NCBI GenBank assembly: GCA_947453205.1 | Contig: CANGFT010000002.1 | Location: forward strand, 55,884 to 119,883 | DNA length: 64,000 bases | Source of the DNA: Beijerinckiaceae bacterium | GTDB taxonomy: Bacteria; Pseudomonadota; Alphaproteobacteria; Rhizobiales; Beijerinckiaceae | Reading direction: 5' to 3' | Part shown: piece after piece, positions 52,734 to 54,673 of the stretch | Position numbering within the stretch: the first letter of the stretch is position 1 | How the letters are laid out: the number at the start of each line of letters is the position of its first letter | Made by a program: the position numbers and the translations under genes | Notes under the pieces: model-generated | What the model saw: only the letters and a program-made list of their open reading frames with translations | Told to the model about the DNA's origin: nothing | Databases searched by the model: none

Positions 52734-53261
52734 TCAGCGCGGCGATGGGGCCCCTGAGCCTCCCGTCGCGCTTCCCATGGTCGAGAGACGGTCGAGCAGG
52801 CGCCCAACGGCGTCGATGCATTCATTCAGCCGGACATCCGGGGGGCAGCGCATATTGACGGCTGATTCGCCCCGGCGCAGATGGATCCGCGTCCCGCTGA
52901 ACGCATGGCTCATCATGGCGGGCCCCATGCCATGGCCCACGGTTGGCCCCATGCCCTGCCCCATGTTTGGCCCCATGCCCTGCCGGAACATGCCCGGACG
53001 CCAGCCGCCAGGACCGCGCCAGCCGCCGTCATCCTCGCCATCCTCATCGCGATACATGCGCTCGCCGCGCCTCATGCGGTCGCGGTCGGCGCCGCCACGA
53101 TCCTGCACGAGCTGTGCGGCGGGCGCGTCAGATCCGGCCGCGATGCGCCCTTCGGGCCGAAAGACCGCGGGATCAGCGGCCTGCGCAAGAGCGCCGCTGT
53201 AGGCGGGCATGGCGCCGGCGACAAGGGCGCAACCCAGGGCGATGATGAGCCTGTGCGTCAT
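52734..53261 (-). CDS. Hypothetical exported Gly/Met-rich protein
   Basis: Signal peptide; GMGP repeats; C-terminal RCP..V.LNECIDA. Confidence 0.6.
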   Translation of the reverse strand: MTHRLIIALGCALVAGAMPAYSGALAQAADPAVFRPEGRIAAGSDAPAAQLVQDRGGADRDRMRRGERMYRDEDGEDDGGWRGPGGWRPGMFRQGMGPNMGQGMGPTVGHGMGPAMMSHAFSGTRIHLRRGESAVNMRCPPDVRLNECIDAVGRLLDRLSTMGSATGGSGAPSPR

Positions 53262-53476
53262 TTGAAAGCCTCTCCGGTGGTGGGACCATGGCTAGAACCC
53301 CCGAGGGATCAGCGGGTTCCCGCCCCGGCGAGGCGCCTTTCGCCTGTGGGGATCGGACACAATCGCCCCCGGCCACGTTTTGCAGCTTGGCGAGACGGAC
53401 GCGATGGTTTATGCCCTGCGCACGTTTGGTTGATTTGCGCGGCGCTGATGCGCCCGGATCAAGCAAACGATGAGCC

Positions 53477-53615
53477 TGCGCCACGGCGCATGCTGCGGAG
53501 GGGTAGCCGAATGGTCTCAGGCGCACAGCGCGCCTGCGGCGCGCGTCCCCTCCAGAAAATTCGCGTGCGCCACGGCGCATGCTGCGGAGGGGTGGCCGAG
53601 TGGTTGAAGGCGCAC
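53477..53615 (+). repeat. Direct repeat (45/50 nt, offset 89 bp) of the tRNA leader plus 5' half
   Basis: TGCGCCACGGCGCATGCTGCGGAGGGGT (28 nt identical) at 53477 and 53566, continuing with 5 mismatches. Confidence 0.85.
53497..53554 (+). ncRNA. Candidate tRNA-Ser-derived mini-tRNA-like element
   Basis: GGAGGGG...CCCCTCC-A acceptor stem, D-arm-like segment and one GC hairpin; no T arm, anticodon arm or CCA. Confidence 0.35.
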
Positions 53616-53675
53616 GCCTGGAAAGTGTGTATACGGGAAACCGTATCGCGGGTTCGAATCCCGCCCCCTCCGCCA
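53586..53675 (+). tRNA. tRNA-Ser (GGA)
   Basis: GGAGGGGTGGCCGAGTGG...CTGGAAA anticodon loop, long variable arm, GGTTCGAATCC and CCCCTCCGCCA. Confidence 0.97.
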
Positions 53676-53719
53676 TACTCCCCTCCATCGCGATCCACCC
53701 CAGATTTCAGACCCCGAAT

Positions 53720-54550
53720 TTTCTCTCGGAAATCCAGCGCCAAGGTGACGGAAATGGGCCTGGGCTCGCTCAAGGACGTGACCCTGGAACAAGCCCGCAA
53801 CGCGCGCGAAGACCAGCGGCGCATCCTCAAATCCGGCCAGAACCCCACCGACGCCCGGCGCGACGCGAAGCGCGCTGACGCGGGCCCGAAGACCGGCAAA
53901 CGCAATTTCGGCCATGTCGCCGACGCGTTCATCAAATCCAAGGGCGCTGGAAGAACGCCAAGCACCGGGCGCAATGGGAAATGACCCTTGGCGACGCCTA
54001 TTGCGCCGCCCTTCGCCCCAAGCCCGTCGATGAAGTGACCACGGCGGACTTACTGACGGTCTTACAACCGATCTGGCAGGCCAAGCCCGAAACGGCCTCC
54101 CGGATCCGGGGGCGCATCGAGGCAGTTCTGGACGCGGCGCGGGTGCAAGAGCTGATCCCCGCCCATGAGGCGACCCCGGCCCGCTGGCGCGGCCAACATG
54201 CGGCGCTGGTCTACGAAGACGTTCCCGCTTTTGTGGCCCGCCTGCGGGAGCGTGAGGCCATGGCCGCGCTGGCGCTCGAACTGGCGATCCTTACGGCTTG
54301 CCGGACGGGCGAAGCGCTGGGCGCCGAGTGGGCCGAGATCAACCTCGCAAAGAAGCTCTGGACCATCCCCGCCTCAAGGATGAAGGCCGGGCGTGAGCAT
54401 CGCGTCCCCCTTTGCGAGCGGGCGGCGGCCATCCTCGAACGGCTGGCGAGCGCGCAGGTGGACGATCAGTTTGTGTTCCCCGGCCAGCGCCGGGGCAAGC
54501 CCCTGTCCAACATGGCGATGGCGATGCTGCTCAGGCGCATGGGCGTTGAC
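53720..54550 (+). pseudogene. Decayed P4-like tyrosine integrase
   Basis: Arm-domain [17 protein letters not shown]; frameshift near 53948 into [14 protein letters not shown]; RTGE and MKAGREHRVPL present; C-terminal HxxR/Y motifs lost. Confidence 0.88.
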
Positions 54551-54673
54551 GACGCGATCATAGAAGCGATCTGCGAAGCCTGGAACAACCTCATCAAGAT
54601 GCCCCAAACAATCAAATCAATCGGGATGAGGGAATGGGCTCATGTGGGTCCATCCGAATAGCCGCTTGCATAA
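54551..54673 (+). mobile_element. IS630-family transposase 3' remnant fused to the integrase frame
   Basis: DAIIEAICEAWNNLIKMPQTIKSIGMREWAHVG resembles the C-terminus of alphaproteobacterial IS630 transposases (recalled, not searched). Confidence 0.6.

Follow-up and report, generated by a model that had tools for sequence, protein, structure and literature searches.

In a 64,000-nucleotide (nt) stretch of a Beijerinckiaceae bacterium genome (assembly GCA_947453205.1, contig CANGFT010000002.1, positions 55,884 to 119,883; below called the window, with all positions counted along it), the gene for tRNA-Ser(GGA) is preceded by a 58-nt tRNA-like mini-element at 53497-53554. We found that the mini-element is one unit of a tandem-repeat family that stands before the same tRNA gene in other Alphaproteobacteria, which an initial annotation made from the sequence alone had missed. 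The stem of a hairpin in the unit (hairpin B) is under selection across the family, an acceptor-like helix is conserved in the window's clade, and the repeated tRNA and leader parts evolve in concert with the real gene. At a probability of roughly one half, we read the whole package as a co-transcribed tRNA-like leader module that is maintained by recombination, kept folded by selection and active in cis.

Anatomy of the element

The region of interest is 53477-53675, and we name the parts of the repeat unit as L (leader), H (copy of tRNA nt 1-30) and I (hairpin, pyrimidine tail and spacer). Its features are as follows.

53477-53496, + strand: L1, copy of the 20-nt tRNA leader (a TGCGCC-ACG-GCGCA hairpin plus TGCTGC); 20/20 match to 53566-53585
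53497-53526, + strand: H, copy of tRNA-Ser(GGA) nt 1-30; 25/30 identical to 53586-53615
53497-53554, + strand: mini-element, 58 nt; from the sequence
53528-53544, + strand: hairpin B, GCGCGCC-TGC-GGCGCGC, a perfect 7-bp (base pair) stem; covariation and a clade-invariant stem
53547-53553, + strand: tail CCCCTCC, complementary to H nt 1-7; 7/7 Watson-Crick pairs with GGAGGGG
53555-53562, + strand: A-rich spacer; varies freely among clade members
53563-53585, + strand: L2, the real tRNA leader, starting with GCGTGCGCC and forming a local hairpin; from the sequence
53586-53675, + strand: genuine tRNA-Ser(GGA); ARAGORN, and Rfam RF00005 at 59.8 bits

The mini-element starts 89 bp before the tRNA and consists, in order, of GGAGGGG, TA, GCCG-AATGGTCTCA-GGC, G, CAC, A, GCGCGCC-TGC-GGCGCGC, GT, CCCCTCC and A. 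H contains the acceptor 5' strand, the D arm and the first three bases of the anticodon stem; a lone A (53527) stands between it and hairpin B, and GT (53545-53546) lies between hairpin B and the tail. The last A is at 53554, CCA is absent, and the acceptor-like 3' strand is followed by AGAAAA and not by RCCA. The 20-nt leader at 53566-53585 is repeated exactly as L1 (TGCGCCACGGCGCATGCTGC), and pairwise alignment shows identity from the leader to GGCGCAC, where it stops; 39 bp of non-repeated DNA lie between the two repeat copies. H differs from the tRNA at five positions, all outside stems, though the adjoining L1 matches at 20 of 20. The initial annotation was correct in describing a copy of the leader and of the tRNA 5' half 89 bp upstream (20/20 of the leader and 25/30 of nt 1-30), and every detail that it gave of a tRNA-like end, a perfect 7-bp acceptor stem, a 7-bp GC hairpin and a missing CCA is confirmed from the sequence. 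Its view that the mini-element is derived from a tRNA is borne out by the same 25/30 alignment.

The source genome is a freshwater metagenome-assembled genome (MAG), and the initial annotation had named an assembly artefact as a possible ground for rejecting the duplication. Contigs from two separate studies (X1 and X3) span 53380-53602 with zero differences, and variant strains (X5 and X6) span 53472-53599 in metagenome contigs. Because independent contigs carry the same arrangement, an artefact is excluded and the duplication is real DNA. The strain variants are a G6>A change at 53502 (X5), which breaks the acceptor-like helix, and an A9>G change at 53505 (X5 and X6), which restores the tRNA base.

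A BLAST search of the mini-element against its own 4.2-Mb genome returned only itself and the real gene (E 6e-13), and by a mismatch-tolerant scan of the genome's 41 tRNAs, tRNA-Ser(GGA) is the only one with a partial copy at most 500 nt away. Repeats of the repetitive extragenic palindrome or miniature inverted-repeat transposable element type have many genome copies with shared flanks, and the mini-element is unique in its genome. We rejected a dispersed repeat: nine generic GCGCGCC...GGCGCGC palindromes occur in the genome and their flanks are not shared. A functional tRNA or pseudo-tRNA was also rejected. The anticodon, variable and T arms are absent, ARAGORN calls only 53586-53675 as a tRNA, and 53497-53554 matches nothing in Rfam, not even the tRNA model, at a threshold as loose as E<=10.

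A family of tandem units

In relatives, one to four or more units stand in tandem before tRNA-Ser(GGA), spaced 83-132 bp apart. Within the genus, 9 of 37 genomes carry them (G000, G020, G035, G006, G013, G004, G012, G031 and G025, the last decayed). A wider scan used one genome per species and a pattern that described only part of H, namely the D-loop plus GGCGCACA(G/T). It gave about 30 loci with a match 83-132 bp upstream of tRNA-Ser(GGA); the other matches are chance hits in coding sequence (e.g. a conserved Solirubrobacterales gene). The carriers include Xanthobacter tagetidis (two strains), Xanthobacter sp. AM11 (2 units), KR7-225 (4 units), Chelatococcus reniformis (2 units), Methyloligella halotolerans and M. 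solikamskensis, as well as MAGs labelled Methylobacterium, Bosea, Beijerinckiaceae, Methyloligellaceae, Caulobacterales and Robiginitomaculum, and a metagenome scan added 15 further loci, some with one or two units and others with at least three. A search for conservation in relatives, proposed in the initial annotation, therefore finds units in 9 of 37 genomes of the genus and in about 30 other alphaproteobacterial species.

The layout of the units is constant. Though the pattern specified H alone, all 43 parsed units have a perfect hairpin of 6-10 bp that starts 1-5 nt after GGCGCAC, with a pyrimidine-rich tail behind it and then a GCGTGCGC-type motif 11-21 nt past the hairpin.

Some loci depart from this layout or show how it changes. 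The units of L042, a marine MAG labelled Rickettsiales, are about 132 bp apart and each has a promoter-like TTGATT-N17-TTAATG; the hairpin is followed by TTTTTT, truncated copies resemble separate small-RNA genes of about 65 nt, and part of another unit lies upstream. Decayed units are also found. L037/G025 is without hairpin B and part of the D loop, and L006 and L008 are without the 5' acceptor strand or the tail; these are natural loss intermediates. In L169, a metagenome contig with two units, H and the stem are identical and the loop (TTT/TCT), the tail (TCCCTTC/CCCCTCC) and the spacer differ, so homogenisation or selection acts on H and the stem only.

Selection on structure

One signal comes from hairpin B. 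In a 15-sequence alignment 100% of the cells are paired, three of the seven pairs have changed on both sides (13 cells), and none of 500 shuffles was as good. About 15 different stems occur in the family (e.g. GACCGCC, GGTCGCC, GCGATGCC, GCATATGGC and GCTTGCCG), with loops that are often UUCG-like. Three stems (L068, L091 and L131) contain G·U pairs on the tRNA-sense strand; read from the opposite strand, or as a DNA palindrome, these positions would be A·C mismatches. Eleven distinct units of the window's clade, drawn from species and from metagenome populations, show no substitution at any of the 14 stem positions and 8 variants of the 3-nt loop. Ten of these 11 have the tail CCCCTC (two with one extra C), and the seventh tail base is C or T, the T giving a G1·U pair, while the spacer behind the tail and the leader before L1 are freely variable.

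The acceptor-like helix gives a more mixed picture across the family. Pairing of at least 6/7 is found in 19 of 37 non-redundant units, with a Fisher p of 2e-5 against composition-preserving shuffles and a p of 0.025 against 5' strands swapped between units; since the units are related by descent, the shuffle p-values overstate their independence. Within the window's single C-rich tail the 7/7 match is only modestly unlikely (shuffle p 0.07), and it is the relatives that lend it weight. The tail follows the tRNA sequence, being TCTCTCC where the tRNA starts GGAGAGG (L073), TCTGTCC where it starts GGACAGG (L045), and CCCCTCC or TCCCTCC where it starts GGAGGGG. The pairing is absent in Methyloligella, the GGTGAGG-type lineages, L006, L008 and L074.

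The initial annotation had taken the retained ends and the new stem as arguments against a simple att scar. The acceptor stem and the new stem both hold up as structures: the former is conserved in the clade and has a tail that tracks the acceptor sequence in other lineages, and the latter shows the covariation, the shuffle result and the varied stems with G·U pairs given above.

Concerted evolution and possible spread

Of 32 genomes, 23 have an H that equals nt 1-29 of their own tRNA exactly. In 20 of the 32, the leader in front of the proximal unit departs from the tRNA's own leader at no more than 2/20 positions, compared with about 14/20 between genomes. Such concerted evolution and the variation in copy number are signs that the units undergo recombination and gene conversion with the real gene. 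About 8 genomes have a single unit whose H matches the tRNA though the leader upstream of it is unrelated to L, which looks as though I+L+H had entered a gene already equipped with a leader. I+L has tRNA-homologous flanks on both sides, and homologous recombination alone could install, expand and contract it. The same process probably moves I+L between related genomes, which would fit the patchy distribution. An origin by unequal crossover between GCGCAC at the presumed transcription start (53418-53423) and tRNA nt 25-30 was considered and is not general, the repeat being limited to the window's clade (the window, L004, L094 and L143) and absent from other lineages.

Folding and the antisense leader motif

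Folded alone, the mini-element has a predicted energy of -30.5 kcal/mol (z = -2.2). In the minimum free energy fold of the presumed precursor (53427-53680, z = -3.6) the acceptor-like helix is kept, the two leader copies pair with each other and the cloverleaf is intact. Of the features of minihelices that RNase P cleaves, the 7-bp acceptor-type helix with an unpaired 5' leader is present, and the helix is retained in this predicted fold. The T stem-loop and the 3' RCCA are absent, the loop of hairpin B has 3 unconstrained nt, and a GT linker stands before the 3' strand.

A second set of pairings involves the leader. GCGTGCGCC (53563-53571) is the exact reverse complement of tRNA nt 24-32 (53609-53617). 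At 9 nt this leader-body complementarity is the longest among the genome's 41 tRNAs, jointly with tRNA-Leu(TAG), and it reaches 12-13 nt in L175 and L148. A GCGTGCGCC-type motif is found behind hairpin B in 43 of 43 parsed units, and in L148, where the tRNA has GGCGCTCGC and the leader GCGAGCGCC, there is one matching change. At least two genus members that have no mini-element (L018 and L035) likewise have an L-type hairpin before the tRNA.

Putative promoter and evidence of transcription

Two further features lie upstream of the element.

53387-53415, + strand: putative tRNA-Ser promoter, TTGGCG (53387-92), 17 nt, TATGCC (53410-15); conservation
53430-53462, + strand: poorly conserved predicted hairpin in the early leader; precursor fold, heavily substituted between clade members

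The block 53380-53425 is conserved like the tRNA itself across six clade members and its flanks are not. A strict consensus promoter scan did not call a promoter at 53387-53415; from the conservation we would place one there, with transcription starting near 53422. In genus members without a mini-element (e.g. L027 and L020) the same promoter-like block stands 11 nt before the tRNA +1. Since the conserved block is upstream of the mini-element in the window and abuts the tRNA in these relatives, the mini-element probably lies within the 5' leader of pre-tRNA-Ser and is co-transcribed in the window's genome. The hairpin at 53430-53462 served as a near-neutral yardstick.

Evidence of RNA comes from L165, a freshwater relative in which hairpin B and its flanks (AGCGCGCCTGCGGCGCGCGT) are identical to those of the window. 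Nine lake metatranscriptomes contained 75% of the sampled L165 words. An exact 122-nt L165 contig, comprising unit +1, hairpin B, the tail, the spacer, L and the next 30 nt of H, was found in 8 of the 8 lake metatranscriptomes examined. This length is 92 plus k-1, and thus the contig is an assembly-graph cycle made by the H repeat. The promoter and intergenic stretch directly before the L165 unit, roughly 120 nt long, was found in 0/8, the divergent neighbour gene was covered in 4/8, and the tRNA with its downstream flank was present as an exact contig in 2/8. This coverage pattern fits RNA over contaminating DNA. The missing 34-nt native L165 leader is compatible with processing at unit +1, though it is not proof of it. 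Additionally, a 140-nt contig of depth 55 from an activated-sludge metatranscriptome joins the hairpin, tail, L and tRNA of a Xanthobacter-like organism. Run X25, a candidate for a Xanthobacter AM11 transcript, was discarded after an 8-kilobase (kb) view showed even, DNA-like low coverage.

Neighbouring genes and the downstream island

One more feature adjoins the 3' end of the tRNA.

53754-54661, + strand: decayed P4-type integrase adjoining the tRNA-Ser 3' end; translation and Pfam

This pseudogene has a frameshift near 53940-53980 and has lost its catalytic C-terminus; its Pfam matches are Arm-DNA-bind_3, Phage_int_M and Phage_integrase (profile positions 7-118 of 172). It looks like a genomic-island remnant, and no second copy of the tRNA 3' end, as an attR-type repeat, was found within the window. 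The DNA downstream of tRNA-Ser differs in every relative and the upstream unit is common to them, which argues that the unit is unrelated to the integrase island. In L038, L074, L091, L011 and L023 a sequence (C/G)TCTTTAGTCTC...CCCAGTCCGGCTT directly follows tRNA-Ser (first ~35 nt), and this is probably the end of one island family that integrates at tRNA-Ser(GGA).

On the other side, a divergent open reading frame (ORF) at 52734-53261 (- strand) encodes 175 aa with a signal-peptide-like N-terminus and Met/Gly/His-rich repeats (GMGPNMGQGMGPTVGHGMGP). Pfam gave no match for this ORF, and by its composition the product could be a periplasmic metal-binding protein.

A proposed leader module with a role in cis

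The reading that we favour would have the module arise by partial duplication, followed by upkeep through recombination or gene conversion with the real tRNA gene, which accounts for both the concerted evolution and the 1 to 4+ copies. The RNA of the unit is modelled as a three-way junction formed by the 7-bp acceptor-like helix, the D arm and hairpin B; it has neither an anticodon arm nor a T arm. The tail, or alternatively the L motif, would lock the surplus 5' half into a compact domain. Locked in this way, it would be kept from pairing wrongly with the genuine tRNA that is made right after it, be it with the 3' half or with the leader. The fold would also give RNase P a second site at 53497, at which the domain could be clipped off.

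Several points weigh against this reading. No RNA run with the window's own unit was found, and the L165 RNA contigs have low depth (3-6) and carry neither strand nor end information. The protective role in cis and the RNase P cleavage are inferred steps. Moreover, RNAalifold on the family pairs H nt 24-30 (GGCGCAC) with GUGCGCC of the next L, around hairpin B. Both strands of this helix are invariant, which places it beyond a covariation test, and it and the acceptor/tail fold are predicted to be mutually exclusive unless a pseudoknot forms. The acceptor-like pairing is missing in about half of the family, which the initial annotation had overlooked along with this alternative fold, and its p-values are affected by the shared descent noted above. 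In long arrays the distal units are decayed in nt 1-12 but retain hairpin B (L125), and the G6>A strain, which belongs to the window's own species, has no compensating change in its tail. The window's H has 5 changes versus 0 in L1, unlike what tight homogenisation would give. Finally, the module is rare: in an evenly sampled set of the order 1 of 401 genomes has a unit by a strict pattern, a lower bound because this pattern would miss the window's own diverged D loop, and such rarity shows the module to be dispensable.

Alternative explanations

Two alternatives differ in what becomes of the unit. The unit may be a trans-acting small RNA, an anticodon-less mimic of tRNA-Ser that is released by RNase P and 3' trimming, stabilised by hairpin B, and able to bind seryl-tRNA synthetase (SerRS), a modification or processing enzyme or a toxin, or to base-pair with targets through its 5' half. 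It is compatible with the acceptor helix, D arm and one extra helix of the window unit, with the selection on the helices, and with I-L RNA at a depth like that of neighbouring transcripts in 8/8 metatranscriptomes; the L042 units, each with a promoter-like sequence and a hairpin followed by T6, have the layout of small-RNA genes. We nevertheless regard it as unlikely, though worth keeping in view, since discrete ends were not observed, CCA and the discriminator context are absent, and the acceptor pairing is missing in half of a family whose distal copies decay. The loop, with 8 variants in 11 units, is unconstrained and so offers no conserved tertiary or protein contact, and the module is rare and often lost. 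The unit could otherwise be a neutral leftover of tandem duplication that is slowly decaying, its structure coming from GC-rich palindrome dynamics and shared ancestry. The patchy distribution (9/37 in the genus, 1/401 in the order sample), the variable copy number, the loss of the hairpin in L021 and of acceptor pairing in L006 and L008, and the strain polymorphism inside H all agree with neutrality. What makes it improbable to us is that the stem is invariant in the same sequences where the 3-nt loop and a 9-nt spacer are saturated with changes, that compensatory changes occur in many lineages and include G·U pairs, which are mismatches in DNA, and that the tail tracks the acceptor sequence.

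The remaining two give the DNA or the hairpin a different job. The idea that hairpin B is an intrinsic terminator or attenuator and holds down read-through into tRNA-Ser has some appeal in AT-richer relatives, where a T-run follows the hairpin (TTTTTT in L042, ATTTTTAT in L095 and GTCTTTTCT in Xanthobacter) and UUCG-type loops are common. The attenuator is real in some of these relatives (L042 and L095) and not in the window's genome, where the hairpin is followed by GTCCCCTCCAGAAAA, with two U only in the first 15 nt, and a terminator scan finds none at hairpin B. RNA contigs continue past hairpin B into L and the H that follows, and the G in the tail of L045, which is needed to pair with C4 of GGACAGG, is unexplained by a U-tract; we hold this explanation to be very improbable. 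Least credible of all is the idea that an integrative element left the unit behind as an att-site remnant, or that the unit is a decoy attB. In its favour, tRNA-Ser(GGA) is a hot spot for integration, has a decayed P4-type integrase at its 3' end and is followed by DNA that differs between relatives. Yet the duplicated part is the 5' leader with nt 1-30 and not the 3' part, the copies are 39 bp apart, the integrase is on the opposite side of the gene and not between the partial and full copies, and the unit stays the same in species with different downstream islands. Partial tRNA genes known to derive from integration flank kb-scale elements (PMC9897764). The initial annotation was right to argue against a simple att scar: the duplicated 5' part, the 39-bp interval and the position of the integrase all speak against one. 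Its suggestion of a decoy integration site is not supported, because the element is without the T arm and 3' end. These are the parts that tRNA-targeting integrases reportedly use, as Williams is said to have set out in 2002.

A broader and more doubtful idea is that the H-I-L unit represents an undescribed tRNA-Ser-derived class that recurs across bacterial phyla, either as an anticodon-less mimic or as an enzyme-free 'self-homing' cassette. The mimic may be read by SerRS, a tRNA-Ser-specific enzyme or a toxin through its acceptor helix, D arm and extra arm. The cassette carries a copy of its target's 5' end, and homologous recombination with a near-identical tRNA-Ser gene may insert it. The antisense leader motif, which pairs with tRNA nt 21-32, may then be part of the element's mechanism.

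Significance and comparison with known systems

A partial tRNA gene is usually written off as debris or as the scar of an integration, and the window unit shows structural selection at the RNA level in an architecture that spans Xanthobacter to Caulobacterales-like MAGs. If the fold matters in cis, it would show cells neutralising a hazardous tRNA fragment beside the real tRNA; if the unit acts in trans, it would be a new kind of tRNA-derived regulatory RNA; and a cassette that spreads by recombining with the tRNA gene itself would be a minimal form of mobile DNA. Since cultured carriers exist, among them Xanthobacter tagetidis DSM 11602 / ATCC 700314, Xanthobacter sp. KR7-225, Chelatococcus reniformis CGMCC 1.12919 and Methyloligella halotolerans VKM B-2706, all three ideas are directly testable. 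A full-text literature search returned no description of upstream tRNA-Ser 5'-fragment repeats, and the family is rare and apparently undescribed in Alphaproteobacteria.

The closest parallel may be drawn with the repeats of the E. coli tyrT operon, which lie downstream of the tRNA, carry its last 19 nt and have an unclear function. These repeats and the rtT RNA were reportedly described by Egan and Landy in 1978 and by Bösl and Kersten in 1991. Both systems are tandem, adjoin a tRNA, contain a piece of it, are co-transcribed with it (presumably so in the window) and owe their origin and changing size to unequal recombination, with a copy number that varies. They differ in that here the repeats are upstream and hold the first 30 nt, the 5' end being the repeated part, with a hairpin that covaries and a tail that restores an acceptor-like helix; the window unit also has no RtT match in Rfam. 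Partial tRNAs left by integration share with our case a truncated copy near an intact, integration-prone tRNA gene. Such a scar is a block of identity found at each end of a kb-sized element and is normally of the 3' part, whereas the window copy is of the 5' part, lies upstream of the gene only 39 bp from the next copy and has a conserved RNA-type hairpin.

Processing signals of tRNA-like shape and minihelices cut by RNase P provide a last comparison, among them the plant mitochondrial t-elements and acceptor/T-stem model hairpins such as pATSer. The window unit differs from them in lacking a T loop and a 3' RCCA and in having a 2-nt linker between hairpin B and the acceptor 3' strand. It resembles them in its 7-bp acceptor-type helix and single-stranded 5' leader inside a longer transcript, as the fold is modelled, and this likeness would make a plausible RNase P site.

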